This document shows, one piece after another, positions 17,128 to 64,000 of a DNA stretch of 64,000 bases. The DNA is taken from IMG/VR virus record IMGVR_UViG_3300021226_000189. One strand, given 5' to 3'. A program made the position numbers and the translations under genes. Under the pieces are notes generated by a model. That model was not told the DNA's origin. It did no database searches and was given only the letters and a program-made list of their open reading frames with translations. The stretch comes from a virus. The stretch's first letter is position 1. Each line of letters starts with the position of its first letter.

Positions 17128-17316
17128 ATGAAATACACAGGTAATATTAATAGCTACACCTTTATTATGAAGGAAGGTGATGATGTAATCGAGGTATGGT
17201 CAGATATGGATGCGGAATTTCCAGAATCATATATCTACCTAAAAGAGGGTGAAATTAAGAGTGAGCGTCATTTCCACATGGAGATATCGGATTGGTGGAT
17301 GCGAAATAAAAACTAG
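17128..17316 (+). CDS. Hypothetical protein
   Basis: 62 aa; ends KN* inside the promoter motif. Confidence 0.6.
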   Translation: MKYTGNINSYTFIMKEGDDVIEVWSDMDAEFPESYIYLKEGEIKSERHFHMEISDWWMRNKN

Positions 17317-17332
17317 CTTACAATCGGTTGCG

Positions 17333-17893
17333 ATGGACAAACATTACAAACACATCGTTGACGATACAAACGGTAAAAGCAGTGAAGAACTGAGAACTGA
17401 TATTTTAAAAGAAATTGACGAAGCTATTGTGGCCACCTCGGATGAAGAGTTGGCAGAATATTTCCAAATGAGAAAAGTTGATTACTCTATGAAAAAAGTG
17501 ATTTTGATTAGAGCAGTCAGCGGTGCTGGTAAATCAACTTTTGCTGAAATGCTTGCACCTGATTTTTATATCTGTTGTGCTGATGATTTCTTCACAGACG
17601 ACCAAGGTAATTACAATTTCGATGCTTCCAAGCTTGGACAGGCTCATAAAGCTTGTCAAGAAAAGTATCTCAAATTGGTGGATCATCCATATATAGATCT
17701 TATTGTTGTTTCAAACACGAACACGAAAGAATCTGATTATAAGTTTTATCTTGACGAAGCGGAAAAGCGTGGTATTATGGTTTTCTCGTTGGTGCTTGAG
17801 AATAGGCATGGTGGTAAAAACTTACATGGAGTACCTGACCATGTGCTTGAGCGTCAGGAACAGAATATTAAAAACAGCTTAAAATTGCGATGA
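17333..17893 (+). CDS. Polynucleotide kinase-like P-loop protein (AAA_33 type)
   Basis: VILIRAVSGAGKST, CADDFF, VSNTNT, HGVPD..LERQ; start set at first ATG after motif. Confidence 0.8.
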   Translation: MDKHYKHIVDDTNGKSSEELRTDILKEIDEAIVATSDEELAEYFQMRKVDYSMKKVILIRAVSGAGKSTFAEMLAPDFYICCADDFFTDDQGNYNFDASKLGQAHKACQEKYLKLVDHPYIDLIVVSNTNTKESDYKFYLDEAEKRGIMVFSLVLENRHGGKNLHGVPDHVLERQEQNIKNSLKLR

Positions 17894-18058
17894 ATAAGAA
17901 TCAACAACTCGTTCTTACTTGCCTTCAAATCAATTTGAAGAATGCTAAGACTCCTGCTATGCGTAAACACGTTCAAGACCAGATAACATCATTTAAATTA
18001 TATTGTAACCCAAAACCTAAACCACAACGTCCAGCTTGGTTGGACAAATTTTAACAAA

Positions 18059-18277
18059 ATGAGCGAACAACGATTAGATGACAAAGCAGAGCTTGAAAAG
18101 ACTCTCGTAACAAAGGGTGATATTGACTGGGATAAGCTTGTCATGACAAATAACATTTCACTAACCTACTCGTTTCTGGAAAGAAATAATCTTAGTATTG
18201 AGTTTGAAAATCGTGATGCTTTGCTCGAAGAGCTATGTCAAAAAGTTTTTGGCGCGAAACCAATTTATAAACAATAA
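18059..18277 (+). CDS. Hypothetical protein
   Basis: Co-oriented packed ORF. Confidence 0.6.
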   Translation: MSEQRLDDKAELEKTLVTKGDIDWDKLVMTNNISLTYSFLERNNLSIEFENRDALLEELCQKVFGAKPIYKQ

Positions 18278-18282
18278 AAAAT

Positions 18283-18570
18283 ATGGAATTCCTAAAACAA
18301 AACCTATCAGAAATCTGGCTACCAGTAATCGAGCAATTTCCGAAAATATTCCTCGAACCATCACCATACGTTCAAGGTCTTTATGAAAAATATTACAAAG
18401 ACGAAGGCATCAAGAAAGAAGACTTGGTGAACTTGCGTTATGGCTTTGAACACGGTGTCGGTTGGAAAGATATTGTTATCGGCTTTTGTGAAGATATGCA
18501 AGCTCTTGCTATTGGACCTCACTGGGATGAGGATTTTGTTGGAGTAACCGATCAATTAAAATTATTTTAA
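18283..18570 (+). CDS. Hypothetical protein
   Basis: Co-oriented packed ORF. Confidence 0.6.
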   Translation: MEFLKQNLSEIWLPVIEQFPKIFLEPSPYVQGLYEKYYKDEGIKKEDLVNLRYGFEHGVGWKDIVIGFCEDMQALAIGPHWDEDFVGVTDQLKLF

Positions 18571-18571
18571 T

Positions 18572-19153
18572 ATGGAAAACAAAGAAATCAACATTGCTAT
18601 TGCGAAAAAATCTGGATTCTCAGTGTTTACGCCAAAAATAATTTTGAGCGAGTATTTCCCAAATTATGGATACTCTATCAAAAATCATCAAGAAGTAGAT
18701 AAAGAAATCTGCTACATGCTGGCAAAATCAGGAATACATAAAGATTATTGGGGTGGGCGGAAAGTTGTAACTTTCTTACTAAAAGATGGTTTGATCTGCG
18801 TAAGTTCAGTAACTAGGAAAAACGAGCTGATTGCGCCAGGGAAAAACATCCCACCTTTCATGCGCTCCGAAATCCCAGTGCATATTAACAGAGATTTCAT
18901 CCGAAAAGAGGAGCATAAGAACGGATTCCAACTGGATGATTTCGCCGAGTATCTTCCAGATTACTGCTCTGATGCTAATGCCACACAAGACATTATTGAT
19001 TCATTTACACGCAAGCAAACAATAAGTTACATTTCCCACCTATACGATATTGTAGGCGGCACAATGGATGATGCTGTTGTGGCGAGTCGTAAAGACAAAG
19101 CACTAGCTATATGGAAAACACTAAAAGAAGAATATGAGAGAACTAAAATTTAA
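18572..19153 (+). CDS. Hypothetical protein
   Basis: 193 aa packed ORF. Confidence 0.65.
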   Translation: MENKEINIAIAKKSGFSVFTPKIILSEYFPNYGYSIKNHQEVDKEICYMLAKSGIHKDYWGGRKVVTFLLKDGLICVSSVTRKNELIAPGKNIPPFMRSEIPVHINRDFIRKEEHKNGFQLDDFAEYLPDYCSDANATQDIIDSFTRKQTISYISHLYDIVGGTMDDAVVASRKDKALAIWKTLKEEYERTKI

Positions 19154-19598
19154 AATTTGGGACAGACAAGCAAACAGATGGGCTGAGAATGATTGCTCAC
19201 TTCATTGTTGCAGTAACTGGCAGATTGACCCATTTACGGGGCAGTTAACTGATTTTGTCAGTGCATTGGATAGTGACGAGGTAACACGCTATAACGCAGA
19301 TCCTGCTCCTGATTATTATTGGAAAGATGGCAAGATCGTAAATGAGCCTCGATATGTATTGGTGCAATTTACGGGTATTAAAGACAAGAATGGAAAAGAG
19401 ATTTACGAAGGAGACATCTTAATTTTTCGACCAGCGTATGACGAATCATTGGGAGGTCAATTCGGCAATGCTATTTTCTCGGTGTCTTTTAAAGACGCTT
19501 CTTTTAGATTTGGTGATGAGTTGGCAGATCAGGAGGGTGCTAATTATTATGAAGTCATCGGCAACATCTTTGAAAATCCAGAACTATTAGAAGCATGA
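19134..19598 (+). CDS. YopX-family protein
   Basis: MRELKFKIWD, QFTGIKDKNGKEIYEGDI, VIGNIFENPELL. Confidence 0.85.
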   Translation: MRELKFKIWDRQANRWAENDCSLHCCSNWQIDPFTGQLTDFVSALDSDEVTRYNADPAPDYYWKDGKIVNEPRYVLVQFTGIKDKNGKEIYEGDILIFRPAYDESLGGQFGNAIFSVSFKDASFRFGDELADQEGANYYEVIGNIFENPELLEA

Positions 19599-20023: not shown

Positions 20024-20077
20024 AAAATAGATAGCATTTCTTGTTGAAAGATATAAAAACTAGAGTATAATCCAATT

Positions 20078-20539
20078 ATGAAACTTTTAGGAAAAACAAA
20101 CGGTGAGAAATTCATCGCATCTTTGCATCATTATCATTGTGTTACTCATGGAGATCTGATGATGGATGGCGGTCAACCCCATACCAATTTTTATGGTGGT
20201 TACAATCGCTTTTCAATGGATGGTCAGACTGTATGGTTCGAATTCAACGCTGACTTCGCTGAAATCTACAACAGACACAAAGAAACCAGAGGTATTTGGG
20301 ATGTTAAACAAGGCAAAATCTTATCACCCGAAGAGTATCCAGATGTTAATGATATGAGTGTGAAAGCGGATAATTTCATTTGGGGGACTTCTGGTAAAGA
20401 TGGTAAATCCCCTTTGAAATACGTTCTTCTCAAGAATTGTGAGACCGATCATTTGCAAAATATTCTAGCAAATGTTAAACATATTCAACCAGAAACAAAA
20501 AGAGTAATTGAATACATTTTGAAAAACCGTGAATCATAA
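20078..20539 (+). CDS. Hypothetical protein
   Basis: Motif-N6-ATG upstream. Confidence 0.75.
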   Translation: MKLLGKTNGEKFIASLHHYHCVTHGDLMMDGGQPHTNFYGGYNRFSMDGQTVWFEFNADFAEIYNRHKETRGIWDVKQGKILSPEEYPDVNDMSVKADNFIWGTSGKDGKSPLKYVLLKNCETDHLQNILANVKHIQPETKRVIEYILKNRES

Positions 20540-21001: not shown

Positions 21002-21237
21002 AGCGCGATCTAATATCTCCTAATAATGTTGTCCCTTACTTAAGGGACATGGGGTATAACTACTTTTGTAATGAACGTGGTGAACTCGTGTATTTGGGTA
21101 ATTTTGAAACTTTGAGTTTCTTTCATTATCATACGATGAGAGAAAATTGGTATTTTTGGCTTGAGGATGATAAGCTATGGTCGGAAAGTATCTGTGGATT
21201 TATGATCGTGTTTCCTCTTCGAAAATCGATTGCTTAA
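20998..21237 (+). CDS. Hypothetical protein
   Basis: ATGA-coupled; TAA stop is the start of a promoter motif. Confidence 0.6.
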   Translation: MKRDLISPNNVVPYLRDMGYNYFCNERGELVYLGNFETLSFFHYHTMRENWYFWLEDDKLWSESICGFMIVFPLRKSIA

Positions 21238-21331
21238 AAACTAGAATATGCTCAAAGCATGAAAGAACAACACAAACTACCAACATGGCTTGCTATTAGA
21301 ATCGTGGAAACATTAAACAAAAAATAATAAT

Positions 21332-22511: not shown

Positions 22512-22836
22512 ATCAACCAAACAAGAACTGCCTAAACACAAGCAGTATATCTTGTATATTAAAAGAGAACAGTCTATGTTTTACAAGGATTCACCATTAC
22601 CGACATTTACTAAATGTGAATGGTCTTGGCATGATGGTGACGGCTCTCAAATATGTCACAATAATAAATATTCAGTTGAAAAGCCACCAGAGGAATATCC
22701 ATTTCTTTTGATTCTTGATGGCGAGGGTTATACTATCTGGACAAACGAAACAAGTAAACATGATCCAGAAATCGAACATTTTTGGTGGATTGATCAAAAA
22801 GAGTTTGATAAAATCTGGGAAAATACTAAACATTAA
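22495..22836 (+). CDS. Hypothetical protein
   Basis: Packed ORF; stop inside motif. Confidence 0.6.
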   Translation: MNIQFKSTKQELPKHKQYILYIKREQSMFYKDSPLPTFTKCEWSWHDGDGSQICHNNKYSVEKPPEEYPFLLILDGEGYTIWTNETSKHDPEIEHFWWIDQKEFDKIWENTKH

Positions 22837-22858
22837 AAAACTAGACTACACTGAGCTT

Positions 22859-23293
22859 ATGAAAATTCAAATCTCAACAGAAGAGAGGCAAAAAATCCTT
22901 AGCTTTAAAATTGATTATAAACGAAAACTTGATCATGGAGAAGTCGATCCTCTTAGTAGCTCGATTAAGGTGAAGGATTTTGTTCTGGATTTTTTGAAAA
23001 ATCGCGGAATCAAAAGACCCAAAGTTTATGAGCAAGCGATTTATGCTTTTGAAAGCGTTGGAATGCATACTGATAATATCTCCCCAAAATCAGCAATGAC
23101 GCTCTGTTTAATGATTTCGGGAAGTGGTAAGCTTTTTGCATGGGATGGTAAAAAAGTGGATGGATGTTGGTTGAACAAAGGAGAAGGTGCTATTTTTGAT
23201 TTCAACCTCCCCCATTCATTCGAAACGAATAAAAAATGCCAAGCATTTCTAATTGACATTCCTAAAAAATATAAAAAAATATTTTACAATTAA
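22859..23293 (+). CDS. Cupin/2OG-Fe(II)-oxygenase-like protein
   Basis: GMHTD...FDFNLPHSF gives HxD..H; start moved to motif-N6-ATG. Confidence 0.5.
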   Translation: MKIQISTEERQKILSFKIDYKRKLDHGEVDPLSSSIKVKDFVLDFLKNRGIKRPKVYEQAIYAFESVGMHTDNISPKSAMTLCLMISGSGKLFAWDGKKVDGCWLNKGEGAIFDFNLPHSFETNKKCQAFLIDIPKKYKKIFYN

Positions 23294-24059: not shown

Positions 24060-25157
24060 ATGAAAAATACTTTAAATTTTTATAGAAATCTTCCAGAAGG
24101 GTTTGTAGCGAAGAGGAGAACCATGTTCGGCAAGAATATGGTGCTAATCACCCCTACGGATATTAAGACAAAATGGTGCGAAAAAACTGAATTTTTTCGC
24201 AGTTGTCTATTTGACGAGGACACTGGTAAAATTTATAGCTTAGGTTTCAAAAAATTTAAAAATTGGGGCGAAGACCCAGAATTTCAACCGTGGGATCATT
24301 CTTGGGAGTTTGAGGCTCGTTACAAAGTAGATGGGTCACTGCTTTGTATATCAAAAATTGATGGTAATATCTTGATGCGAACAAGGGGTGTGTTTGACGC
24401 GAGAGAACATGAGACTGGTGACGAATTGGACGGATTTATTGAAAAGTATCCGCTTCTTTACGAAAACGAATTTATTAATTCTGAAAATTATACCATTTTA
24501 TGCGAACACACAACTCCGAAAAGAATTATCGTTTTGCGTGAAAGCGATGAACCAAAATTGACTCTTTTGGGCATTATTTGTCATAAGACAGGGCAATATG
24601 TCTCACAATGCGTTTTGGATGGTTTTGCGCAGCGAATTGGAATTGATCGACCTCAAAAATATATTTATAAAAATATCGCAGATTGTATTGCCGATGTTGA
24701 AGCGTGGAGAGGGAAGGAGGGGGTTGTTGCTTACTCTCCTGACGGTCAGACATTGAAAAAATTTAAAAGTAGTCATTATCTTTCACTCCATAAATTATCG
24801 TTTGGTTTGAGAGGGTTGGACAATGTTTTAGATTTGTTTGTCGAGTCTCCAAGATTTTTGGATTATCAAGATTTTTATAATTATGTGTTGGAGTCTCTGG
24901 ACTTCGAAATAGCAGAAAAAATTAAAGATGAAGCGCGTCAAATCACCGATGCTTATGCAAAATTTGTGAAAGGTGTTGAGAAAATGCGTGAACGGATGGA
25001 GTTCATTCGTAATTATGCTACTCGAAAAGAGCAAGCTGCGGCGATTCAAGAAGAGTTCACGGGATGGAAAACGTCGATTGCGTTCCTACTTCTTGACAAT
25101 CGAGAAATTGATGATAAAGTCGTGCGTAAGGCAATGGAGAAAATATTAGAATTATGA
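24060..25157 (+). CDS. RNA ligase, T4 Rnl1-like
   Basis: SLGFKKFKNWGE, motif I KVDGSL, RTRG, EGVV..K.KS..Y. Confidence 0.8.
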   Translation: MKNTLNFYRNLPEGFVAKRRTMFGKNMVLITPTDIKTKWCEKTEFFRSCLFDEDTGKIYSLGFKKFKNWGEDPEFQPWDHSWEFEARYKVDGSLLCISKIDGNILMRTRGVFDAREHETGDELDGFIEKYPLLYENEFINSENYTILCEHTTPKRIIVLRESDEPKLTLLGIICHKTGQYVSQCVLDGFAQRIGIDRPQKYIYKNIADCIADVEAWRGKEGVVAYSPDGQTLKKFKSSHYLSLHKLSFGLRGLDNVLDLFVESPRFLDYQDFYNYVLESLDFEIAEKIKDEARQITDAYAKFVKGVEKMRERMEFIRNYATRKEQAAAIQEEFTGWKTSIAFLLLDNREIDDKVVRKAMEKILEL

Positions 25158-25900
25158 TACTCATTAACAGTTATTTCGAAAACGAGCGAGAGCTTTGGGG
25201 TGAACATATCTTTTGTGAAGACTTGTGCCGCGATGAAGATATTCGGCGTAATGGTTTCACACCTATTGTAGCGCGAGGAAGCATTGCTTTCGACAATAGC
25301 GTAAAGTTTGCACTCAAGACTCTTGGACTGCCTGATTTGCGCTTTCCATTCAATAATGACCCACGATTCTATAATTACAGCCATTGGAAATCCCTGCCTG
25401 ATTTGTTAAACGCTGATTGTTGGTTCGATACATGGGGAGAAGTATCTGAATCTTTGGAGCATCGTGACAAGCTATGGATTCGCAGTGCTAGTGGTAATAA
25501 AAACTTTACTGGTGGCGTTTTCACGCGCAGTGAATTCATGAACGAAGTCGAATATTTAAAACAAATAAATAGCGACGATATTATGTTTGTGGTTGCTCAC
25601 CCAAAAACAATCAACCGCGAGTATCGCTTTGTGTTTGTTGGCGGCAAAGTAATCAGCAGCAGTCTTTACATGGAGAATGGTAATCCTAAACAAGGAGAAC
25701 ATGCACCTGATGATCTTGTTAAATTCGCGCAGAAATGGTTCGACAGTCAATGTCTTTTACCGAAACATGTGGTAGTGGACATTACCGACGATCAGAAGAT
25801 TATTGAAATCAATAATATCTTCACAAGCGGATGGTATAGTTGCGATCTGGAGAAAATTATCGCGGCAGTGAAGAAAGAGCTTGACATCCTTAAAAAATAG
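25154..25900 (+). CDS. ATP-grasp domain protein
   Basis: LWIRS.SGNK.FTG, INREYRFVFV, VVDI..KIIEINNIFTSGWY. Confidence 0.7.
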   Translation: MILINSYFENERELWGEHIFCEDLCRDEDIRRNGFTPIVARGSIAFDNSVKFALKTLGLPDLRFPFNNDPRFYNYSHWKSLPDLLNADCWFDTWGEVSESLEHRDKLWIRSASGNKNFTGGVFTRSEFMNEVEYLKQINSDDIMFVVAHPKTINREYRFVFVGGKVISSSLYMENGNPKQGEHAPDDLVKFAQKWFDSQCLLPKHVVVDITDDQKIIEINNIFTSGWYSCDLEKIIAAVKKELDILKK

Positions 25901-25915
25901 AATACACTGAAAAAC

Positions 25916-26719
25916 ATGGAAGTTAAATACACAACAGATGGAAAAAAAGTATCGGTAGTTGGCAAACTTAATAACACGGAAACAATTGTTCAGGAAATTT
26001 TTGTAACTGCGAATGGTGCTGAAATCCCAAGTGGAGAAAATTTTGTCGTTAAAGGTCTTCACGATCAACCAGTAGAAAGTTGGAAAGAGAAGCAATTGCG
26101 GGAACTAGAAGCTCGCTACTATCGTGAAAAAAATGAATGGGAAGGAAAAATCACGAATCAAAAAAGAAAACTTGAAAATGCGGTCGCTAAAGCTTCCTTA
26201 AAAGTAGATTCTCTTTTATATTTTGTCAATAATTCAAATGAATCACAACTCAAAACACTTAAATTGATGTTGAGTGGTAAAATCAATTATTTTTTCATCG
26301 ACGACACTTGGAATCCACGAATTTCCACTTGGGATGATGAAATGTATACGTCAGATGGTTATGATGATGGTAAAGTCAGAAATCTCAAATTATTGGTAGT
26401 CGCAGGGGCATCGAATGGTGATTTGCAATACGGTATTTCGCAATATTCTGATGGTTCTGGTAGTAAGAGCCGAGTCTATCCATTTGAAACGCGAGAAGAA
26501 GCCTTAGCGCATGCTCAAAAAGTTTTTGATGATATTTGTGAAGAATATTTAAATTGTAAAAATGTCACTACAATACATTATTGGCTTAAAAAACCAATTA
26601 AAGATTTGGTTATCCCTGATAAAGTTTGGGAAAAATATAAACAATCGCTAGAAGAAGAAAAGAACAAGCGAATCAAGAATCTCGAAGAGCAGATCGAGAA
26701 AATTCGCAACGAAGCTTAA
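25916..26719 (+). CDS. Hypothetical protein
   Basis: 267 aa; motif variant upstream. Confidence 0.75.
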   Translation: MEVKYTTDGKKVSVVGKLNNTETIVQEIFVTANGAEIPSGENFVVKGLHDQPVESWKEKQLRELEARYYREKNEWEGKITNQKRKLENAVAKASLKVDSLLYFVNNSNESQLKTLKLMLSGKINYFFIDDTWNPRISTWDDEMYTSDGYDDGKVRNLKLLVVAGASNGDLQYGISQYSDGSGSKSRVYPFETREEALAHAQKVFDDICEEYLNCKNVTTIHYWLKKPIKDLVIPDKVWEKYKQSLEEEKNKRIKNLEEQIEKIRNEA

Positions 26720-53152: not shown

Positions 53153-53174
53153 AAAACTAGAATAGAATTGAGAC

Positions 53175-53930: not shown

Positions 53931-53952
53931 AAAACTAGAATACAATTACATT

Positions 53953-54862: not shown

Positions 54863-55057
54863 AAAGACTTACTAAAGAAGAAATCGAACGATTTGTCACT
54901 GCTTCCACAAATAAGGATGCTGTATGGAATTTCCTTGGCACTGTTCACCATTGCGGTAATTATGTCAATGCTCTTGCCAATCTGTTAGACGATGCGGCAT
55001 TGTATGATTGGAATCATGACACTGTGATGGCAATCTATGAGGGATTGAAATACGCAA
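54859..55057 (+). pseudogene. Small gene interrupted near its 3' end by TnpB element 1
   Basis: Joining 55057 to 56314 gives ..GLKYASKW* (69 aa). Confidence 0.55.
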
Positions 55058-56279
55058 GTGAATTACCCACAGCACGAGGCTGTGGCTTCAGTCTAACTAA
55101 CTTAGACTTCTTTTTAGACGCTTCACAGACAGCAGTTTCGCAAGAAGTATTACTACCTCCTACCAGAGCTTCCATCTCCACATCTGTAATCGCCAATCCC
55201 TGACGATGAATATTCTTTGCGGCATTAACATCCCTTTGGTGATGAGAACCACACTTAGGACATTTCCAATGCCTCACTGACAAAGGTAGCTTATCAATAA
55301 TATAATCACAAGAAGAGCATGTTTTGGATGATGGATAGAATCTATCTATCTTTATCACTTTCTTACCATACCATTGCGCTTTATATTCTAGCATAGATAC
55401 AAAAGAACTCCAAGAACTATCAGATATACTATAAGATAATTTACTATTTCTTACCATATTCTTGACAGCCAAAGATTCCAAAGAAATCATATCATACCGA
55501 TTGATAAGATCAGTGGATAGCTTGTGTTGGAAATCCTTACGAGAATTGGTTATCTTCTCATGGATTCTTGCTATCTTATTTCTTTGTCTTTTGTATCTAT
55601 TACTACCTTTCGTTTTCCTACTTAAATGTTTTTGAGCTTTTGAGAGCTTCTGTTTGAGATTTCTATTAAAATTAGGATTCTTTACTTTCCCACCATCTGA
55701 AGTTACTATGAAATCGTTAATACCTAAATCAATACCTACTGTCTTGCCTGTCTTCTCTTTGATCTTCTTAGGAACTTCCATTAAGATACTGGCAAAATAT
55801 TTATTAGTGGGTGTTTTAGAAATTGTTACGGATTTAATCTCGCCTTCTAACTTACGATGTAATATAATGGGAATACCATCTTTAAACTTTGGAATGTGAA
55901 TCCTATTATCTTTTAAGGATATGTGTTGGGGGACTCTAAAAGATTGGTTTTCTGATTTCTTTTTAAACTTTGGAAATTTAGATTTCTTACGGAAGAAATT
56001 TCCATAAGCAGTCTCAAGATTCATAAGAGATTGTTGTAAGGTTTGGGAATTGACTTCTTTAAGCCATTGGTAATCACCCTTTTTCATGGCAATCACATTA
56101 CCAGCGCATTGATTATAATTCAATGTCTTTCCATTGTTTAAATAATGATTTTGTTTTTCTTTTAGAAAATGATTATATATGAATCGGGAGCATCCAAAGT
56201 GCTTTCCAAGCAATTCCTTTTGAGAATCCAAAGGATAGATTCTGAATTTGAAGGCTTGATATGTAATTTCTTGTTCTAT
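55035..56279 (-). CDS. tnpB: TnpB RNA-guided nuclease (copy 1)
   Basis: AFKFRIYP HTH, RuvC GIDLG / LESL / RDVNAAKNI, CxxC-CxxC; start extended to ATA 56279. Confidence 0.92.
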   Translation of the reverse strand: MEQEITYQAFKFRIYPLDSQKELLGKHFGCSRFIYNHFLKEKQNHYLNNGKTLNYNQCAGNVIAMKKGDYQWLKEVNSQTLQQSLMNLETAYGNFFRKKSKFPKFKKKSENQSFRVPQHISLKDNRIHIPKFKDGIPIILHRKLEGEIKSVTISKTPTNKYFASILMEVPKKIKEKTGKTVGIDLGINDFIVTSDGGKVKNPNFNRNLKQKLSKAQKHLSRKTKGSNRYKRQRNKIARIHEKITNSRKDFQHKLSTDLINRYDMISLESLAVKNMVRNSKLSYSISDSSWSSFVSMLEYKAQWYGKKVIKIDRFYPSSKTCSSCDYIIDKLPLSVRHWKCPKCGSHHQRDVNAAKNIHRQGLAITDVEMEALVGGSNTSCETAVCEASKKKSKLVRLKPQPRAVGNSLAYFNPS

Positions 56280-56313: not shown

Positions 56314-56368
56314 GTAAATGGTAAAAATACTTTATTGACTTTTTTAAAAACTAGATTACATTTGGGAC

Positions 56369-56560
56369 ATGAAACACCGCATTGGAATCACAGAAGATAA
56401 AAATGGTTTTTATTCCATTCAGTTAAACGGTAGAATCATTTCTTACGGATTAACCAAAGATAAAGCTTTTTTTCTTTATCGTGGTATTGCATGGGGCATC
56501 GACGAAGCAGGTGATGAAGTTATTCTGGAAGATTCAATTTTTGAAATTTTCAAAGATTAA
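56369..56560 (+). CDS. Hypothetical protein
   Basis: Motif-N6-ATG. Confidence 0.65.
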   Translation: MKHRIGITEDKNGFYSIQLNGRIISYGLTKDKAFFLYRGIAWGIDEAGDEVILEDSIFEIFKD

Positions 56561-56582
56561 AAAACTAGATTACATTTGGGAC

Positions 56583-56729
56583 ATGACAATTCAACGCAAT
56601 CCGATCAACGGTAGTATCACCATCACAACAATCAAATTCAAACGATTGATTACAAGGACTTTTTACGATTACACAGTGGATGAAGCTTTGGGATCGTTTA
56701 AGGAATATCTCAAGACTCTGAAAAAATGA
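56583..56729 (+). CDS. Small hypothetical protein
   Basis: Motif-N6-ATG (start moved from 56481). Confidence 0.55.
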   Translation: MTIQRNPINGSITITTIKFKRLITRTFYDYTVDEALGSFKEYLKTLKK

Positions 56730-57249: not shown

Positions 57250-58479
57250 ATAGAACAGGAAATTACATATCAAGCCTTCAAATTTAGAATATATCCTTTG
57301 GATTCTCAAAAGGAATTGCTTGAGAAGCATTTCGGATGTTCAAGATTCATTTATAATCATTTTTTGAAAGAGAAACAAGAAGAATATCTATCTTCTGGTA
57401 AGGGATTAACATATAGTAAGTGTTGTAAGATTCTAAAGGAATTAAAAGATAATGAATTAGAATGGTTGAAAGAAGTCAATTCACAGACCTTACAACAATC
57501 AATTCAAAATCTTGAGACTGCTTATGGAAACTTCTTTCGTAAGAAATCCAAATTTCCAAAGTTTAAAAAGAAATCAGAAAACCAATCCTTTAGGGTTCCC
57601 CAACACATTTCTTTGAAAGACAATAGACTCTTCATTCCAAAATTCAAAGATGGAATACCCATTGTATCACATCGTAAGTTAGAAGGTGAGATAAAGAGTG
57701 TTACGATTTCTAAAACACCTACTGATAAATATTTTGCTAGTATCTTAATGGAAGTTCCTAAAAAGTCTAAATCAAAGACTGGCAAGACCGTAGGAATTGA
57801 TTTAGGTATTATAGATTTCATAGTAACAAGCGATGGGGAGAAAATCAAGAATCCAAATTTTTCAAGATCATTAAAAGATAAATTAAAGACTCATCAAAAA
57901 CATTTAAGTAGGAAAACGAAAGGTAGTAATAGATACAAAAGACAAAGAAAGAAAGTGGTAAGAATCCATGAGAAGATAACCAATTCTCGAAAGGATTTTC
58001 AACACAAATTAAGCACTCGTTTGATTAATGAGTATGATATGATTTCTTTGGAATCTTTAGCTGTTAAGAATATGATACGGAATAGGTGCTTATCCTATTC
58101 CATATCTGATAGCTCTTGGAGTTCTTTTGTATCCATGTTGGAATATAAAGCCAGTTGGTATGGGAAGGAGATTAAGAAAATCGATAGATGGTATCCTAGT
58201 TCCAAGACATGCTCAAGCTGTGATTATATTATTGATAAGCTACCTTTGTCAGTGCGTAAGTGGCAATGTCCCGAGTGTGGTTCTCATCACCAAAGGGATG
58301 TCAATGCTGCTAAAAATATACATCGTCAGGGATTGACGATTACAGATGTGGAGATGGAAGCTCTGGTAAGAGGTAGTAATACTTCTCACGAAACTACTGT
58401 CTGTGAAGCGTCTAAAAAGAAGTCTATATCAGATCGAAAGATTTATAGACTGAAGCCGCTGGGTCTTGCCCAGCGGTAG
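57250..58479 (+). CDS. tnpB: TnpB RNA-guided nuclease (copy 2)
   Basis: Same intact motifs as copy 1; start extended to ATA 57250. Confidence 0.92.
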   Translation: MEQEITYQAFKFRIYPLDSQKELLEKHFGCSRFIYNHFLKEKQEEYLSSGKGLTYSKCCKILKELKDNELEWLKEVNSQTLQQSIQNLETAYGNFFRKKSKFPKFKKKSENQSFRVPQHISLKDNRLFIPKFKDGIPIVSHRKLEGEIKSVTISKTPTDKYFASILMEVPKKSKSKTGKTVGIDLGIIDFIVTSDGEKIKNPNFSRSLKDKLKTHQKHLSRKTKGSNRYKRQRKKVVRIHEKITNSRKDFQHKLSTRLINEYDMISLESLAVKNMIRNRCLSYSISDSSWSSFVSMLEYKASWYGKEIKKIDRWYPSSKTCSSCDYIIDKLPLSVRKWQCPECGSHHQRDVNAAKNIHRQGLTITDVEMEALVRGSNTSHETTVCEASKKKSISDRKIYRLKPLGLAQR

Positions 58480-58484: not shown

Positions 58485-58665
58485 AATTGAACAAGTGAGA
58501 GAATATGTGGAAGGTCATCTTTTCACATGTTCTAACAAGCAAGAGCTATCCATGAACGAAATTCTTGCCATGCTGAAAAATGCTTTGGCATGTATCGAAG
58601 ATGGTGACGATGGTTTGGAAGCTTATCTTGATCGTATGGAATACTACAAAAAATTAAAAAACTAG
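58485..58665 (+). pseudogene. 3' part of a 63-aa gene split by the IS605 element
   Basis: ATGACATTTAC (56726-56736) + AATTGAACAAGTG.. reads MTFTIEQVREYVEG..KLKN*. Confidence 0.8.
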
Positions 58666-58679
58666 AATACACTTGGGAT

Positions 58680-58847
58680 ATGACGAGAGACGAATTACTA
58701 CCAATCATGGAAGCGATGGAAACCTACGGTGGTGGGTTTGTGAAAAAGCTGGTGCAAGCTATGCAAGTGGCTGATAACCACAATCTGGAACGCATCGTGA
58801 CAGCATTTCCCGAAATCATCGAACGATACAAACAATTTTTGAAATAA
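58680..58847 (+). CDS. Small hypothetical protein (55 aa, not in ORF track)
   Basis: Motif-N6-ATG; YGGGFVKKL..AD..N..RI..AFP. Confidence 0.65.
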   Translation: MTRDELLPIMEAMETYGGGFVKKLVQAMQVADNHNLERIVTAFPEIIERYKQFLK

Positions 58848-58848
58848 C

Positions 58849-59166
58849 ATGACAATCGCACAGCAATTAAAAATTAAAGACTTCCCTTTTACAATCAATG
58901 ATAAAAATGGTAATCAGATTTACTGGGAGACTTCCAATGGATATTGGTCAAAACGCGAATACAATACCAATGGTAATGTGATTTACTTTGAGACTTCCGA
59001 TGGATATTGGTTAAAACGTGAATACGATACCAATGGTAAATTGATTTACTTTGAGAATTCCTATGGAACAATCAAAGACAATCGCCCTAAAACAGATGTT
59101 CAAAAGGCAATCGAACTTCTTGAGAAAGAAGGATTGATTGTGGATGGAAAGATTCTAAAAAACTAG
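58849..59166 (+). CDS. MTIAQQ repeat family copy 9 (2 units, 105 aa)
   Basis: Caps plus repeats. Confidence 0.9.
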   Translation: MTIAQQLKIKDFPFTINDKNGNQIYWETSNGYWSKREYNTNGNVIYFETSDGYWLKREYDTNGKLIYFENSYGTIKDNRPKTDVQKAIELLEKEGLIVDGKILKN

Positions 59167-59182
59167 AATACAATCAACACAT

Positions 59183-59587
59183 ATGGGACGCTCAATTAGC
59201 ACACATCGAAACGCTTACACTACTTTCTTCACCACGTTTGATTATGATGATGATGAAGATTATTCACAATACGCATGGGATAGTTTTGTGAATTGTGTGC
59301 GGGACATTCTCTCAAAAAAATACAAATCTTTACAAAACGCTGATCGTTGGGTTGATCGTGAAGATCACATCATTCTCGAAAACAGCGTAGCAGAGATTTC
59401 CATTTCAGAATATTGTGGCGGCGTTGCTATCTGTCTCGCCCCTAGAGACACTGACAATCCCTTGCATGAGGGTTGGTGTGGTCAAATCTATAAAGGATTT
59501 CATGACATTTTGAATAAATGTTTTCAGGGTTATCACAAGATCGGATGCTTCTCCAATGGTGAGGGAGTGTATGAAAAAATCGCTTAA
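59183..59587 (+). CDS. Hypothetical protein
   Basis: Motif upstream; stop begins motif. Confidence 0.7.
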   Translation: MGRSISTHRNAYTTFFTTFDYDDDEDYSQYAWDSFVNCVRDILSKKYKSLQNADRWVDREDHIILENSVAEISISEYCGGVAICLAPRDTDNPLHEGWCGQIYKGFHDILNKCFQGYHKIGCFSNGEGVYEKIA

Positions 59588-59997
59588 AAACTAAAATACA
59601 ATTAACACATGAAAAAATATATCTATCGAATTTGGAATTACTTTCGCCCTTTCCCAAAACCAGAGTATGGTTGGAAAATCTTTCAACAAACGTCTTGGTT
59701 GAATAAGCAGATCCAAGAAGAACTCTTGAAACGTAAAGAAGATTGATGTTGGAAGTTATTTGTTTCTACACTATTATTATTACTCTTGGTGCTAGGTTAC
59801 ATTTAATATGCGCAATTTTTTCAATCCTATTGATTTATTTATTAAAAAACTAGAGTAATATTAAGACATGCTTAAGATTAAATTCATACTTGACACGAAC
59901 AAAGCTAAAGGTCTTCCATTCTCTGAAAAGAATCGTAAACGTTCTTGGTGAAGTAAGCTGTTGACTTTTCGGCTCTGTGAGTAAATAGAATAGTAAT

Positions 59998-60073: not shown

Positions 60074-61132
60074 TTATTTTTTATTAAAATAACCTCTTGG
60101 TGGATAATCTGTGATGTCATATGATTTGCACCATTTTCTAACAGCATTATCAGACACTCCATATTTTTCACCCAATCTAGTGAAAGGTAATTCCCATAAC
60201 ATTTTTTCAAGTTCTTCCTTTTCAGGTCTATCTATAACTTTTCTGCGTCCAATTCTAAAACATGTCATACATTGCTTTGCGTCCGAGTCTTTGATATTAC
60301 CGCATTTACATAACTCTTTCATTTTTACCGTTTCTTTTTTAACATGTTTAAGTATGATGTTATGAATAATTTTCTGTGGTTTTTCTTTCCGTGGTTTTTC
60401 TTTCCGTGGTTTTTCTTTCTGACGTTTTTCGGCTTTCATATTGGAATAATTCAATGAACAAGGTCTACATCTGATAGCTCTTTTATCTATATGTTTACCG
60501 CAATCAACACAATATTTTAATTTCTTCATTTTCGGAACATAATTGAAATAATCAAATTCAACTTTAACATTTGCGTTTGATAACTCATCTATAAAATCAC
60601 TCCATTTATTTAAATTGAAACATGCTGAATAATGAATCTCGTATACATCCCATCCATTAGCTTCTAACAAATCATGTCTTTCTTGATAGTAAGATTTCAA
60701 TGTTCCGTCTCTTTCATAATGCTGATTACCATTGATTTCTAAAGCTATCATCTTATCAGGTAATGCAATGTCAATTGAAAACGATCTACCATCAATTTCT
60801 GGTTGATACTCTTCAATGAATGGAATATTTAATTGTGTTAGAAATTCTTTCACTTTCTCACAAGGTTTTGATTTAAATTTATCTTTATTTCTCCAAGGAT
60901 GTTTATCAGGATTATCTTTCAACCATTGCTTTCTCTTTTCTGATAGATTCTTTTTCGTTTCCTCTGTATGTATTACTGGTTTTGATTTATTGATTTTTAT
61001 ATTATTGTTTTTAAGAGTCTTTCTTACCAGACAATCAGACACGTTCAAATGATTTGCAATCTCCATCACGGTCAATCCTTTATCAGATAGCTCTTGTAAT
61101 TTTTCAATACTAAGATAAATTTTCTTCGGCAT
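60074..61132 (-). CDS. Vsr/DUF559-like PD-(D/E)xK endonuclease with HTH and Zn-finger modules, probable homing endonuclease
   Basis: DIALPDKMIALEINGNQH, CxxC..CxxC clusters, terminal HTHs; TAAATA-N5-ATG. Confidence 0.75.
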   Translation of the reverse strand: MPKKIYLSIEKLQELSDKGLTVMEIANHLNVSDCLVRKTLKNNNIKINKSKPVIHTEETKKNLSEKRKQWLKDNPDKHPWRNKDKFKSKPCEKVKEFLTQLNIPFIEEYQPEIDGRSFSIDIALPDKMIALEINGNQHYERDGTLKSYYQERHDLLEANGWDVYEIHYSACFNLNKWSDFIDELSNANVKVEFDYFNYVPKMKKLKYCVDCGKHIDKRAIRCRPCSLNYSNMKAEKRQKEKPRKEKPRKEKPQKIIHNIILKHVKKETVKMKELCKCGNIKDSDAKQCMTCFRIGRRKVIDRPEKEELEKMLWELPFTRLGEKYGVSDNAVRKWCKSYDITDYPPRGYFNKK

Positions 61133-61216
61133 ATAAGTATTTAACAGAATAACCTTACTTTACAAATAAGACTAATCTGATAAATAAAAACTAGAATACA
61201 TTACTTTACATACAAT

Positions 61217-61292
61217 GCGCTGATAGCTCAGTGGTTAGAGCAGGGTGCTCATAACGCCTTGGTCGTGGGTTCGAATCCCTCTCAGCGTACCA
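61217..61292 (+). tRNA. tRNA with CAT anticodon (elongator Met or lysidine Ile2)
   Basis: GCGCTGA/TCAGCGT acceptor, loop CTCATAA, CCA encoded; lacks initiator features. Confidence 0.88.
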
Positions 61293-61323
61293 ATTCTCTA
61301 AAAAACTAGAATACAATCACAAT

Positions 61324-61704
61324 ATGACAATTGCACAACAATTAAAAATTAAAGACTTCCCTTTTACAATCAATGATTCCAATGGTAAAGAGATTTACTA
61401 TGAAGCTTCCAATGGATATTGGCAAAAACGTGAATACGATACCAATGGTAATCGGATTTACTTTGAGACTTCCAATGGAACTTGGGTAAAACGCGAATAC
61501 GATACCAACGGTAAAGAGATTTACTTTGTGGATTCCGATGGATATTGGGCAAAACGTGAATGGGATACCAATGGTAATGAGATTTACTTTGAGAATTCCG
61601 ATGGAGAAATCATTGACAATCGTCCTAAGACTGATATTCAGAAAGCAATTGAATTTCTTGAGAAAGAGGGATTGATTGTGGATGGTAAGATCCTAAAAAA
61701 CTAG
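61324..61704 (+). CDS. MTIAQQ repeat family copy 10 (3 units, 126 aa)
   Basis: Caps plus repeats. Confidence 0.9.
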   Translation: MTIAQQLKIKDFPFTINDSNGKEIYYEASNGYWQKREYDTNGNRIYFETSNGTWVKREYDTNGKEIYFVDSDGYWAKREWDTNGNEIYFENSDGEIIDNRPKTDIQKAIEFLEKEGLIVDGKILKN

Positions 61705-61718
61705 AATACAATCACAAT

Positions 61719-62036
61719 ATGACAATCGCACAGCAATTAAAAATCAAAGACTTCCCTTTTACAATCAATGATTCCAATGGTAAATTGATTTACTATGAGA
61801 ATTCCAATGGATATTGGAGAAAATATGAATACGATGCCAATGGTAATGTGATTTACTTTGAGAATTCCACTGGACATTGGGAAAAACGTGAATGGAATTC
61901 CAATGGTATTCGGATTTACTTTGAGACTTCCTATGGAACAATCGTAGACAATCGTCCTAAGACAGAAGTTCAGAAAGCAATCGAACTCCTCACGAAAGAG
62001 GGATTGATTGTGGATGGAAAGATTCTTAAAAACTAG
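61719..62036 (+). CDS. MTIAQQ repeat family copy 11 (2 units, 105 aa)
   Basis: Caps plus repeats. Confidence 0.9.
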   Translation: MTIAQQLKIKDFPFTINDSNGKLIYYENSNGYWRKYEYDANGNVIYFENSTGHWEKREWNSNGIRIYFETSYGTIVDNRPKTEVQKAIELLTKEGLIVDGKILKN

Positions 62037-62050
62037 AATACACTCATAAC

Positions 62051-62431
62051 ATGACAATCGCACAGCAATTAAAAATTAAAGACTTCCCTTTTGAAATCAA
62101 GGATTCCAATGGTAAAGTGATTTACCTTGAGGATTCCAATGGATATTGGTCAAAACATGAATACGATGCCAATGGTAATCAGATTTACTGGGAAAATTCC
62201 AATGGATCTTGGTCAAAGCGTGAATACGATTCCAATCGTATTCGGATTTACTTTGAGACTTCCGATGGATATTGGTTAAAACGTGAATACGATACCAATT
62301 GTAATTGTATTTACTATGAGAATTCCGATAGAACAATCATTGACAATCGTCCTAAGACAGAAGTTCAAAAGGCAATCGAACTTCTTACGAAAGAGGGATT
62401 ACTGGTGGATGGAAAGATTCTAAAAAACTAG
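62051..62431 (+). CDS. MTIAQQ repeat family copy 12 (3 units, 126 aa)
   Basis: Caps plus repeats. Confidence 0.9.
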   Translation: MTIAQQLKIKDFPFEIKDSNGKVIYLEDSNGYWSKHEYDANGNQIYWENSNGSWSKREYDSNRIRIYFETSDGYWLKREYDTNCNCIYYENSDRTIIDNRPKTEVQKAIELLTKEGLLVDGKILKN

Positions 62432-62445
62432 AATACAATCGTAGT

Positions 62446-62634
62446 ATGACAACACAAGAAATTAACGATCTGGAAAGCCAATTCGATACTGTAGCAATCG
62501 AGATTCTTGATGCTCTAAAAAGCAATCCAAAATACATACAAATCAAAGCAAAATTCGATTTGTTGCAATCCATGATGCAAAACGCTATCGGTGAAGAATT
62601 TCCTGATAGTTGGATGGCAGAATTAAAAAACTAA
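62446..62634 (+). CDS. Hypothetical protein
   Basis: Motif-N6-ATG; ends KN* in the next motif. Confidence 0.7.
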   Translation: MTTQEINDLESQFDTVAIEILDALKSNPKYIQIKAKFDLLQSMMQNAIGEEFPDSWMAELKN

Positions 62635-62648
62635 AATAAAATATTTTT

Positions 62649-62731
62649 CGGAGTGTGTCCAAATTGGTAAAGGAGATCGACTTAAAATCGATTGGCACTG
62701 CGCCTTATGGGTTCGAGTCCCATCACTCCGA
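62649..62731 (+). tRNA. tRNA-Leu(TAA)
   Basis: CGGAGTG/CACTCCG acceptor, ATCGA-CTTAAAA-TCGAT, long variable arm, ATGGG-TTCGAGT-CCCAT; CCA not encoded. Confidence 0.9.
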
Positions 62732-62774
62732 CTTTCTTCCACCCATAATTAAAAAACTAGAATACAATTGATCT

Positions 62775-62969
62775 ATGGAATACATTAAACGATATAATTG
62801 GACAATCCGCAATACTGTAACTGGTCAAACGGCTGGGTATAATTGTTGGAATGGTGCTTGTGATGAAGATCATGTTCGCAATAGTCCATCTGTTCAAGCT
62901 TGGGCAAATGGTGATGAAATCGAAGTGATTGCAGAAACGTTTGAAGACTATGATGATCTTCAAGGTTAA
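62775..62969 (+). CDS. Hypothetical protein
   Basis: Motif-N6-ATG. Confidence 0.65.
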   Translation: MEYIKRYNWTIRNTVTGQTAGYNCWNGACDEDHVRNSPSVQAWANGDEIEVIAETFEDYDDLQG

Positions 62970-62991
62970 AAAACTAGAATACAATTGAGCC

Positions 62992-63666
62992 ATGACAAAA
63001 ACATACGATACCTTTCTCCCTATCTTCTCTGGATTCTACAATACCATTTGGGATGAATCCGAATCTTGGATGGAATGTGAACTTGATAGTGAAGAGTGTT
63101 TCCGTGAACACTATCCTGAATTCGATGGTATTCCTTTCGATTTCATTAGAGACAATTTTTGGGATATTGTCGATTGTCGCCAAGGTTTTGAGGGTGTGCT
63201 TGATTACATCGTGAGCGTGTTTCCTCGGTGGTTCAATGGTGAAGTGGGTTCTGATATTATCAAAAACGTCACTTTACAAAAGATCGTTTCCCCTCGTGAA
63301 TACAATTTCTGTAACGATTCTGCTGATGTTTCCATTGAAGTTGATACGGATTTGATTGCCAAGTATCTGCAAGAAAACGGTCATGCTTTCTCTGAGTATC
63401 TGAAAAAACGATACACTTCTCGTGATGGGTTCATCTCTCATTATTCTAACGATATTTCAGAATGGGCTGAAGACACTAACGATTTCACCGACTTCTCTGT
63501 CAATGGTCATTACTTGGGCGCGATTCTGGAATTTATTGTGAACGATTCCATTGATGATGCGGAAATGTCATTGTTCTATTCTGCAAATACTCATGAGGGA
63601 TTCTCTAACAGCGTGGGAGTCGATACTGCACGATTGGTGGAAAAATGGGAAGCATCGAAAGATTAA
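62992..63666 (+). CDS. Hypothetical acidic protein
   Basis: Motif-N6-ATG; FSGFYNTIW, SPREYNF.ND, YTSRDGFIS. Confidence 0.8.
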   Translation: MTKTYDTFLPIFSGFYNTIWDESESWMECELDSEECFREHYPEFDGIPFDFIRDNFWDIVDCRQGFEGVLDYIVSVFPRWFNGEVGSDIIKNVTLQKIVSPREYNFCNDSADVSIEVDTDLIAKYLQENGHAFSEYLKKRYTSRDGFISHYSNDISEWAEDTNDFTDFSVNGHYLGAILEFIVNDSIDDAEMSLFYSANTHEGFSNSVGVDTARLVEKWEASKD

Positions 63667-63688
63667 AAAACTAGAATACACTCATAAC

Positions 63689-64000
63689 ATGACAATCGCA
63701 CAGCAATTAAAAATTAAAGAATTTCCTTTCGGAATCAAGGATAAGAATAGTAATCAGATTTACTATGAGAATTCCACTGGATATTGGATAAAACGTGAAT
63801 GGGATGCCAATGGTAATCGGATTTACTTTGAGGATTCCAATGGATATTGGACAAAACATGAATACGATACCAATGGTAATTGGATTTACTATGAGAATTC
63901 CGAAGGAACAATCGAAGACAAACGTCCCAAGACTGATGTCCAAAAGGCAATCGAACTCCTCACGAAAGAGGGATCGATTGTGGATGGTAAGATTCTAAAA
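63689..64000 (+). CDS. MTIAQQ repeat family copy 13 (2 units; last codon and stop beyond window)
   Basis: 104 codons read to the window edge ending KILK; absent from ORF track. Confidence 0.9.
   Translation, partial: MTIAQQLKIKEFPFGIKDKNSNQIYYENSTGYWIKREWDANGNRIYFEDSNGYWTKHEYDTNGNWIYYENSEGTIEDKRPKTDVQKAIELLTKEGSIVDGKILK

Follow-up and report, generated by a model that had tools for sequence, protein, structure and literature searches.

A repeat of about 25 bases recurs on one strand of a 64,000-nucleotide (nt) stretch of viral DNA, IMG/VR record IMGVR_UViG_3300021226_000189, which was analysed over its full length and is called the window here. Its copies span positions 17307-63691 and stand before about 50 small genes and two tRNAs. 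The repeat is likely a promoter that lacks a -35 element, consists of a conserved upstream block and a -10 hexamer, and would give leaderless mRNAs, as judged from the sequence. It probably represents the main non-late promoter class of an uncultured T4-like phage and would be active early.

Matches to AAAAAACTAGAA with at most one mismatch were found 41 times in the 64-kilobase (kb) window, all on the plus strand, compared with 2.1 expected. A weight matrix was trained on these 41 copies over motif positions -1 to +17 and applied with a threshold of at least 10 bits. It found 49 copies on the plus strand and none on the minus strand, 48 of them with at least 16 bits, and shuffled sequence peaks at about 13 bits. 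One further degenerate copy at 48507 lies below the threshold. The scan confirmed the repeat, for which a first-pass annotation of this DNA had given about 52 copies; this number is right within the threshold, and the annotation's 35 copies with exactly 6 nt between hexamer and ATG were counted again by the matrix. The remaining gaps were N7 in four copies, N8 in two and N9 in one (n = 49). The chance of 35 out of 49 at one offset is about 1e-48. About 12 paralogous copies make this figure too extreme, but in more than 30 copies the flanks are unrelated. Nearly all ATGs behind the hexamer open a reading frame (ORF) of at least 45 amino acids (aa) and are its first in-frame start. Two sequence features of leaderless genes, namely a -10 box 6-8 nt before the AUG and no ribosome-binding site, were found in 42 of the 49 copies.

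The layout of the repeat is T(-25)-AAAAAACTAGAA(-24 to -13)-TAcAaT(-12 to -7)-N5-Y(-1)-A(+1)TG. This profile was drawn from the 41 copies picked on the upstream block alone, and the hexamer was not imposed. Within the hexamer, T at -12 (39/41), A at -11 (41/41) and T at -7 (40/41) are conserved, and positions -10, -9 and -8 vary and are mostly C, A and A or C. The invariant A-11 and T-7 are the positions read by region 2 of sigma70, and the variable positions are those that vary in -10 hexamers. Five positions between the hexamer and -1 are unconstrained. A pyrimidine at -1 in 37 of 41 copies and an A at +1 fit a start of the sigma70 type, and so does the pyrimidine-purine (Y-R) step kept in the N7-N9 classes of relatives.

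Positions -35 to -30 hold no information content. A -35 element is absent in 46 of the 49 copies, and TTGAC(A/T) is present in three, with a spacer of 15-16 nt to the second of two overlapping hexamers, the TAcAaT. These are the copies at 25881, 47444 and 56335 that had been named before. The earlier remark that a Shine-Dalgarno sequence is missing also stands, as there is neither space for one nor any trace of it. Extended -10 promoters carry TGn at -15/-14. This element was not found at -15 to -13, where the window has GAA and the complete relative G004 (see below) has CAC, CAA, CGA or GAA. In 31 of the 49 copies, the stop codon of the upstream gene lies within the block, either as TAA at T(-25)AA or as TAG in CTAGAA, and the intergenic distances are therefore only 14-22 nt. 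Hairpins resembling intrinsic terminators are not enriched on the plus strand of the promoter array, and the closely spaced units lack terminators between them. An inverted repeat around the block was considered and rejected, being seen only in paralogue copies and gaining no support from the matrix.

The gene content of the window is T4-like, with a clamp loader (phrog_168), two RNA ligases, a RecA/KaiC-type ATPase, four tRNAs and two TnpB genes, and the G+C content of the phage is about 35%. Megablast of the window against 50,697 cultured-phage records gave no near match. For the clamp loader, the best cultured relative has 41% identity; for the major capsid protein of the closest relative, identity to cyanophage gp23 is about 33%. 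Relatives in IMG/VR share patches of 70-90% identity with the window. One of them, G001 (184 kb), has 84-113 motif copies on one strand, and G004 (197.7 kb, complete, with terminal repeats) has 75-96. Three fragmentary relatives carry 7-21 exact copies each, always on a single strand. A further lineage (contigs L010, L049 and L051) shares the promoter but has next to no nucleotide similarity in its genes. A scan of IMG/VR with a degenerate motif returned, among the matches listed, multi-copy contigs of which the full-length ones measure 172-207 kb. Among these listed matches the block was found only in related contigs, a statement on the matches themselves and not on its absence from unrelated phages. 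The motif is common to a clade of uncultured phages with genomes of roughly 180-200 kb. In bacterial genomes, the 18-mer had single, chance-level matches only, and searches for the host-marker genes WhiB and psbA found neither.

Across the clade, the invariant core is (T)AAAAACTA at -23 to -16, and the next three bases vary (GAA, GAT, CAC, CAA, CGA). The conserved A6-CTAGAA block described in the first-pass annotation thus holds for the window, but across the clade only AAAAACTA is invariant and not the whole CTAGAA. In G004, the hexamer is often CAAAAT.

Several lines of evidence support a start on or beside the ATG. N9 is a common second spacing class in the relatives. In their N7-N9 classes, nucleotides 6 and 7 after the hexamer still form a Y-R step, mostly CA, in 23 of 26 cases in G001 and 18 of 19 in G004 (background 0.23). 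As this step is kept when the ATG lies 1-3 nt further, the constrained point would be the start site and not only the ATG, which either coincides with the 7th nt after the hexamer or follows it at a distance of 3 nt. Two copies directly precede tRNA genes, as had been reported: the one at 61185 heads tRNA-Met (61217) and the one at 62625 heads tRNA-Leu (62649). The element therefore appears to serve untranslated RNAs too. tRNA-Leu, a gene called by ARAGORN and Infernal, begins with the 7th nt after the hexamer at 62637-62642. The same holds for tRNA-Ile(UAU) of G004 (around 1471-1491, minus strand), where this base is a G. tRNA-Met begins 8 nt after the predicted +1. By this geometry, tRNA-Leu and the tRNA-Ile of G004 may be made without a 5' leader and would need no trimming by RNase P. 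Some other copies lie 27, 35 or about 65 nt before the next start, so the motif lacks the close link to the start codon expected of a ribosome-binding site.

Conservation was measured in 27 alignments of orthologous, non-paralogous junctions. Identity was 94% in the block, 88% in the hexamer and 63% in the N5 stretch, with 80-83% in the coding flanks, and downstream of the ATG codon positions 1, 2 and 3 scored 0.90, 0.85 and 0.74, respectively. Such a gradient is characteristic of recognition elements linked by a spacer that is fixed in length but free in sequence. The proposal that +1 would fall on the A of the ATG, and that the motif would not be a ribosome-binding site, found support in every sequence test run. 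A -10 box 6-8 nt before the start is a recognised mark of bacterial leaderless genes (PMC6028130). In Deinococcus, this signature was validated by 5'-end mapping and mutagenesis, and the geometry was shown to give transcripts starting on the start codon (PMC4007540, PMC12340547).

In the proposed explanation, a host RNA polymerase of the sigma70 type would bind TAcAaT as the -10 element and start 7 nt downstream. In about 70% of the copies, +1 would be the A of the ATG, which would give an mRNA without a 5' leader or with a leader of 1-3 nt, to be translated by direct binding of the ribosome to the 5'-terminal AUG. The block beside the -10 would replace the missing -35 contact. Some points weigh against this explanation. 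About 12 copies are not independent, as they belong to one tandem paralogue family and share both flanks. The T at motif position -1 and the TAG at +7 to +9 of the block double as upstream stops (31/49), which adds to their conservation. For tRNA-Leu, transcription would have to start at the 7th nt on a C, a poor initiating base. We know of nothing that reads a sequence-specific element at -23 to -16 and of no sigma70-holoenzyme contact established there, so that the role proposed for the block is based only on where it lies and how well it is conserved. The absences of AsiA, MotA and T7 polymerase described below are weak, as no positive control rang, and efficient leaderless translation in the host of this phage is an assumption.

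The same geometry occurs with an ordinary -35 element at one gene of the window:

33122-33158, plus strand: canonical TTGACT-N16-TACAAT-N6-ATG without the block, before gene 33156-33830 (DUF1281_C), in leaderless geometry

A few such block-less TTGACA-N16-TANNNT-N6-ATG promoters, in which the TTGACA is exact or almost so, occur in the window and in both large relatives (G001 112229, 133520 and others). The genes behind them code for the DUF1281_C protein, DNA methyltransferase-like and glycosyltransferase-like proteins and ORFans. The use of the same -10 and spacing with an ordinary -35 argues for a standard sigma70-type holoenzyme, with the block as an alternative to the -35.

T4 late promoters have a TATAAATA-type box at -10 that is read by gp55. 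The block motif differs from this box, and (C)TAAATA-N5-ATG forms a separate class in these phages. In G001, exactly 5 nt and an ATG follow this late-type box in 20 of 44 cases of CTAAATA and 47 of 216 of TAAATA (p about 1e-22), and the capsid gene has CAAATA-N5-ATG. In the window, (C)TAAATA stands 5 nt before the ATG of the minus-strand starts 4174 and 15998 and of the plus-strand start 8336. Late genes also look leaderless, going by this spacing. In most genes without a promoter of their own, a Shine-Dalgarno sequence is likewise missing, and their upstream regions are A/T-rich and often overlap the previous stop. The leaderless layout would thus be a property of the whole phage and not only of this repeat. 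It implies a host that translates 5'-terminal AUGs well, or a takeover that makes it do so. Searches for genes of ribosomal protein S21 and IF3, candidates for favouring leaderless translation, gave no match.

The individual copies in the window are given below with their strand, the hexamer, the number of nucleotides between hexamer and ATG (N6 to N9), the position of the ATG and, in brackets, the length of the ORF; block variants are in brackets after the word copy, and paralogue refers to the MTIAQQLKI family described thereafter.

17307-17335, plus strand: weak copy (ATAAAAACTAGCT), TACAAT, N8, ATG 17333 (186 aa)
20054-20080, plus strand: copy, TATAAT, N6, ATG 20078 (153 aa); TTGAAA at a 16-nt spacer
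21235-21261, plus strand: copy, TATGCT, N6, ATG 21259 (22 aa only)
22835-22861, plus strand: copy, TACACT, N6, ATG 22859 (144 aa)
25881-25918, plus strand: copy with TTGACA as -35 (spacer 16), TACACT, N7, ATG 25916 (267 aa)
29376-29403, plus strand: copy, TACAAT, N7, ATG 29401 (98 aa); among the few preceded by a terminator-like hairpin (29350-29364)
29952-29978, plus strand: copy, TATACT, N6, ATG 29976 (171 aa, weak DenV-like match from residue 1)
30603-30629, plus strand: copy, TACAAT, N6, ATG 30627 (146 aa)
34192-34218, plus strand: copy, TACAAT, N6, ATG 34216 (89 aa)
35347-35364, plus strand: copy with AACAAT as hexamer, no ORF behind
36133-36159, plus strand: copy, TACAAT, N6, ATG 36157 (105 aa, MTIAQQLKI paralogue)
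36465-36491, plus strand: copy, TACAAT, N6, ATG 36489 (112 aa, paralogue)
36807-36833, plus strand: copy (CTAAAA), TACAAT, N6, ATG 36831 (58 aa)
37480-37509, plus strand: copy, TACAAT, N9, ATG 37507 (318 aa, RecA/KaiC-type ATPase); A at the 7th nt after the hexamer, hence a predicted 3-nt leader
39134-39151, plus strand: copy (AATAGAA), TATACT, leader of about 65 nt to the RNA ligase gene at 39222
40797-40823, plus strand: copy, TATACT, N6, ATG 40821 (65 aa), ORF runs into tRNA-Ser at 41012
43613-43640, plus strand: copy, TACAAT, N7, ATG 43638 (56 aa)
44014-44040, plus strand: copy, TACAAT, N6, ATG 44038 (68 aa)
44733-44759, plus strand: copy, TACACT, N6, ATG 44757 (56 aa)
45731-45757, plus strand: copy (CTAAAA), TACCAT, N6, ATG 45755 (147 aa, paralogue)
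46189-46215, plus strand: copy, TACAAT, N6, ATG 46213 (90 aa, paralogue)
46484-46504, plus strand: decayed copy, hexamer deleted, CACAAT abuts ATG 46502 (147 aa, paralogue)
46936-46962, plus strand: copy, TACAAT, N6, ATG 46960 (75 aa)
47444-47500, plus strand: copy with TTGACA (spacer 15), TATACT, A-rich leader of at least 27 nt that is conserved in G004, start uncertain
48112-48138, plus strand: copy, TACACT, N6, ATG 48136 (126 aa, paralogue)
48507-48533, plus strand: degenerate copy (AAAAAACTAAGA, TGTAAT), N6, ATG 48531 (118 aa), under the matrix threshold
49203-49229, plus strand: copy, TACGAT, N6, ATG 49227 (88 aa)
49982-50037, plus strand: copy, TACACT, 35-nt leader, ATG 50035 (342 aa, DUF932)
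51088-51114, plus strand: copy, TAAAAT, N6, ATG 51112 (130 aa)
51793-51819, plus strand: copy, TAAACT, N6, ATG 51817 (170 aa)
52400-52427, plus strand: copy, TACAAT, N7, ATG 52425 (60 aa)
52605-52631, plus strand: copy (TGAAAACTAGAA), TACACT, N6, ATG 52629 (109 aa)
53151-53177, plus strand: copy, TAGAAT, N6, ATG 53175 (251 aa)
53929-53955, plus strand: copy, TACAAT, N6, ATG 53953 (77 aa)
54641-54667, plus strand: copy, TACACT, N6, ATG 54665 (65 aa)
56335-56371, plus strand: copy with TTGACT (spacer 16), TACATT, N6, ATG 56369 (63 aa)
56559-56585, plus strand: copy (CTAGAT), TACATT, N6, ATG 56583 (48 aa)
58656-58682, plus strand: copy, TACACT, N6, ATG 58680 (55 aa)
59157-59185, plus strand: copy, TACAAT, N8, ATG 59183 (134 aa); A at the 7th nt, hence a predicted 2-nt leader
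59585-59611, plus strand: copy (CTAAAA), TACAAT, N6, ATG 59609 (45 aa)
59844-59870, plus strand: copy (CTAGAG), TAATAT, N6, ATG 59868 (27 aa), upstream of tRNA-Arg at 59998
61185-61217, plus strand: copy, TACATT, no ORF, heads tRNA-Met (61217); predicted leader of about 8 nt
61300-61326, plus strand: copy, TACAAT, N6, ATG 61324 (126 aa, paralogue)
61695-61721, plus strand: copy, TACAAT, N6, ATG 61719 (105 aa, paralogue)
62027-62053, plus strand: copy, TACACT, N6, ATG 62051 (126 aa, paralogue)
62422-62448, plus strand: copy, TACAAT, N6, ATG 62446 (62 aa)
62625-62649, plus strand: copy (CTAAAA), TAAAAT, no ORF; tRNA-Leu (62649) begins with the 7th nt after the hexamer
62751-62777, plus strand: copy, TACAAT, N6, ATG 62775 (64 aa)
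62968-62994, plus strand: copy, TACAAT, N6, ATG 62992 (224 aa)
63665-63691, plus strand: copy, TACACT, N6, ATG 63689 (paralogue, runs off the window)

Most products of the promoter-headed genes have no family match. The MTIAQQLKI family comprises at least ten paralogous small genes with internal repeats of about 63 base pairs (bp), each with its own promoter copy. They lie at 36157-36827, 45755-46945, 48136-48516, 58849-59166, 61324-62431 and 63689-64000, had no Pfam matches, and each gene's last codons (L K N stop) lie within the promoter block that follows. The copies without an ORF directly behind (35347-35364 and 39134-39221) may mark small RNAs or regulatory leaders; neither region matched an Rfam family, and no gene was called downstream of 35347-35364. 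The promoter-driven 65-codon ORF at 40821-41018 overlaps the 5' end of tRNA-Ser (41012-41099) and is 86-88% conserved in relatives.

Concerning the reader of the block, we lean only slightly towards host polymerase, with or without a modifier delivered by the virion, over a phage protein. The first-pass annotation had the block probably substitute for the -35 through a phage activator or sigma factor or an unusual host polymerase contact. The substitution itself is probable, as a -35 is lacking and the block stands in its place, but of these readers a phage sigma is the least probable: the only sigma-like gene found in the relatives codes for a late sigma of the gp55 type, a 146-aa homologue (phrog_234). 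Direct reading by the host is favoured by the fact that the block class drives the ORFan-rich region, which is immediate-early in T4. It is also favoured by the lack of a second sigma and by negative searches for AsiA, MotA and T7-type polymerase in a complete relative, three of these searches having had no positive control. The position of the element at -23 to -16, on the other hand, speaks for a phage factor. Contacts with the spacer at about -17 to -22 are made by the beta-prime zipper and sigma region 3, and a spacer element recognised by the core has been proposed; both are leads only. A bolder version is put forward tentatively and would be the less probable one. Here, AAAAACTA would be a new kind of basal element, read through a host polymerase contact that has not been described as sequence-specific or by a phage protein, possibly one injected with the DNA. 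All three promoter classes (block, canonical and gp55-late) would have +1 on the start codon, some tRNAs would be made with mature 5' ends, and the phage would depend almost totally on leaderless translation.

The strongest alternative, possible though clearly less probable than the proposed explanation, is a middle-type promoter in which AAAAACTA is the site of an activator that is encoded by the phage or delivered by the virion and diverts host polymerase from -35 promoters, in the manner of MotA/AsiA in T4 or gp39 in Thermus phage P23-45. The 46 copies without a -35 would fit this, the small canonical TTGACA-N16 class could express such a factor first, and the block is specific to the clade, being found in related contigs only among the matches listed. 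Switches of phages to -35-independent promoters are documented (PMC4124052). Against it, AsiA and the MotA C-terminal domain (PF09010, PF09158) had no match in five relatives, one of them complete, in searches in which no positive control rang. No activator candidate was found behind the canonical promoters, where the genes resemble those of a methyltransferase, a glycosyltransferase and ORFans and not regulators. The block class further drives a region that is immediate-early in T4, and the box lies at -23 to -16 and not at -30.

It is unlikely that the motif acts mainly at the RNA level, either as a translation enhancer other than Shine-Dalgarno on polycistronic read-through mRNA or as a processing site that makes 5' ends at the ATG. 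An A-rich block would be unstructured as RNA, most other genes of the window also lack a Shine-Dalgarno sequence and are A/T-rich upstream, and the preceding stop is only 14-22 nt before the next ATG. As terminators are not enriched, read-through transcripts containing the motif must exist, and on these it may have a secondary role. Such a reading does not agree with the copies that head tRNAs without an ORF or that are separated by 27, 35 or about 65 nt from the following start codon. The motif varies like a -10 hexamer with A-11 and T-7 kept, the Y-R step stays fixed when the ATG shifts, and the same hexamer and spacing occur with a canonical -35.

Still less probable is a promoter role in which a polymerase encoded by the phage, or a second sigma factor of phage origin, takes the place of the housekeeping holoenzyme of the host. 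The conserved stretch is long, contiguous (about 20 bp) and clade-specific like promoters of such enzymes. The sole sigma-like gene, however, is of the gp55 type and matches the separate TAAATA late class, and T7-type polymerase (PF00940) had no match in the relatives in a search without a working control. Moreover, the 5 nt before +1 are unconstrained (63% identity), unlike in promoters of single-subunit polymerases, and A-11 and T-7 with a fixed 6-nt discriminator are the pattern of sigma70 region 2.

The two weakest alternatives are both highly improbable. In the first, the -10 would be the overlapping upstream hexamer C-TAGAAT, and transcripts would begin about 5 nt ahead of the ATG. TAGAAT does match TANNNT, and its final T belongs to the second hexamer as well. 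In G004, however, these positions often read TACACC and lack a T at -7, and the N6-ATG spacing is still maintained relative to the second hexamer. The three -35 boxes are separated from the second hexamer by 15-16 nt, but from the first by only about 10 nt, and in contig L010 the ATG that would fit the first hexamer opens no ORF. C-TAGAAT was thus rejected as -10 on the sequences of G004 and contig L010; had it been the -10, a 5-nt leader would still be functionally leaderless. In the second, the repeat is mainly a linker at gene boundaries with built-in stops for recombination and cassette exchange, and its likeness to a promoter is incidental. Ends of homology blocks between window and relatives fall on junctions in 21-29% of cases versus 4.8% for random positions, a comparison confounded by gene ends, and 31 of the 49 copies hold a stop inside the block. 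The promoter-early stem-loop (PeSL) repeats of the T4-type coliphages RB49 and phi1 mediate such shuffling (PMC2839356), but there it is a by-product of real promoters and would be an added consequence sooner than a rival. A linker also leaves A-11 and T-7, the fixed 6-nt free spacer, the Y-R step and the tRNA geometry unexplained.

These PeSL cassettes (Arbiol et al. 2010, PMC2839356) are the closest system to the leaderless promoter proposed here. They are about 100 bp long and have consensus sigma70 -35 and -10 elements, an AT-rich upstream region, a G/C stem-loop terminator and a Shine-Dalgarno sequence. Both systems comprise about 50 nearly identical repeats in a hyperplastic region, before small ORFans and overlapping the upstream stop; these are early promoters in PeSL and probably so here. 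As in PeSL, where the repeats mark boundaries of indels and replacements, the ends of homology blocks are enriched at the junctions, with the confounding named above. Unlike PeSL, the unit measures only about 25 bp and has no -35, no stem-loop and no Shine-Dalgarno sequence, with the block at -24 to -13 and the start codon at the predicted +1. A stem-loop of the PeSL type was looked for and not found, hairpins not being enriched in the plus-strand array.

The leaderless genes of Deinococcus-Thermus and Actinobacteria share the -10 hexamer, the gap of about 6 nt, the AUG and the lack of a ribosome-binding site (PMC6028130, PMC4007540, PMC12340547). Those are host genes without a shared block, in contrast to a T4-like phage with a 12-nt element in 50-110 copies. 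Among phages, the Thermus thermophilus myophage phiYS40 has mostly leaderless middle and late mRNAs (Sevostyanova et al. 2007, as summarised in PMC3594737). It is likewise a large lytic phage in which whole temporal classes are mostly leaderless and need leaderless initiation for their translation. It differs in not being T4-like, in its thermophilic host that is already rich in leaderless genes and in showing the trait in the middle and late classes.

T4 middle promoters have a MotA box centred at -30 and are used with AsiA. Like T4 MotA/AsiA and the gp39 system of P23-45, which has phage promoters bypass -35 recognition (PMC4124052), the repeat keeps the sigma70 -10 and dispenses with recognition of a -35. 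It differs from T4 middle promoters in its element at -23 to -16, with nothing conserved at -30 and positions -15 to -13 varying across the clade, and in the negative MotA and AsiA searches, made without a control. It also differs from promoters of single-subunit phage RNA polymerases, as conservation does not run contiguously through -1/+1. The feature combines known kinds, namely early-promoter cassettes of T4-type phages and bacterial leaderless genes, and no description of a leaderless promoter class in T4-type phages was found in the literature searched.

Other genes of the early region were observed alongside the repeat. Two full-length TnpB (IS605 OrfB / Cas12f-like) genes lie at 55035-56231 (minus strand) and 57298-58479 (plus strand), and their relatives of about 50% identity are scattered over many phyla in cyanobacterial, methylotroph and other metagenome-assembled genomes. 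A 352-aa ORF at 60074-61132 (minus strand) between tRNA-Arg and tRNA-Met has weak matches to HTH_23 and the RAP domain and may be a homing-endonuclease-like insert in the tRNA region. RNA ligase genes (families RNA_lig_T4_1 and RNA_ligase) are located at 24060-25157 and 39222-40232 amid the tRNA-bearing early region; two RNA ligases near tRNAs are also found in the tRNA-repair set of T4.

T4 serves as the textbook example of how phages control transcription, and phages related to it rank among the most abundant large ones in water. In the clade described here, the -35 and the Shine-Dalgarno sequence would be replaced by a 12-nt block and a start codon at +1 in 50-110 genes per genome. For annotation, this means that gene starts in these phages could be called from the promoter. 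If confirmed, the repeat would be a compact, portable promoter-plus-start module and a defined DNA element for seeking a new polymerase contact or activator. It would also point to a host, or a host takeover, that favours initiation of the 70S type, and it would make this phage the first of the T4 type known to rely on leaderless mRNAs.

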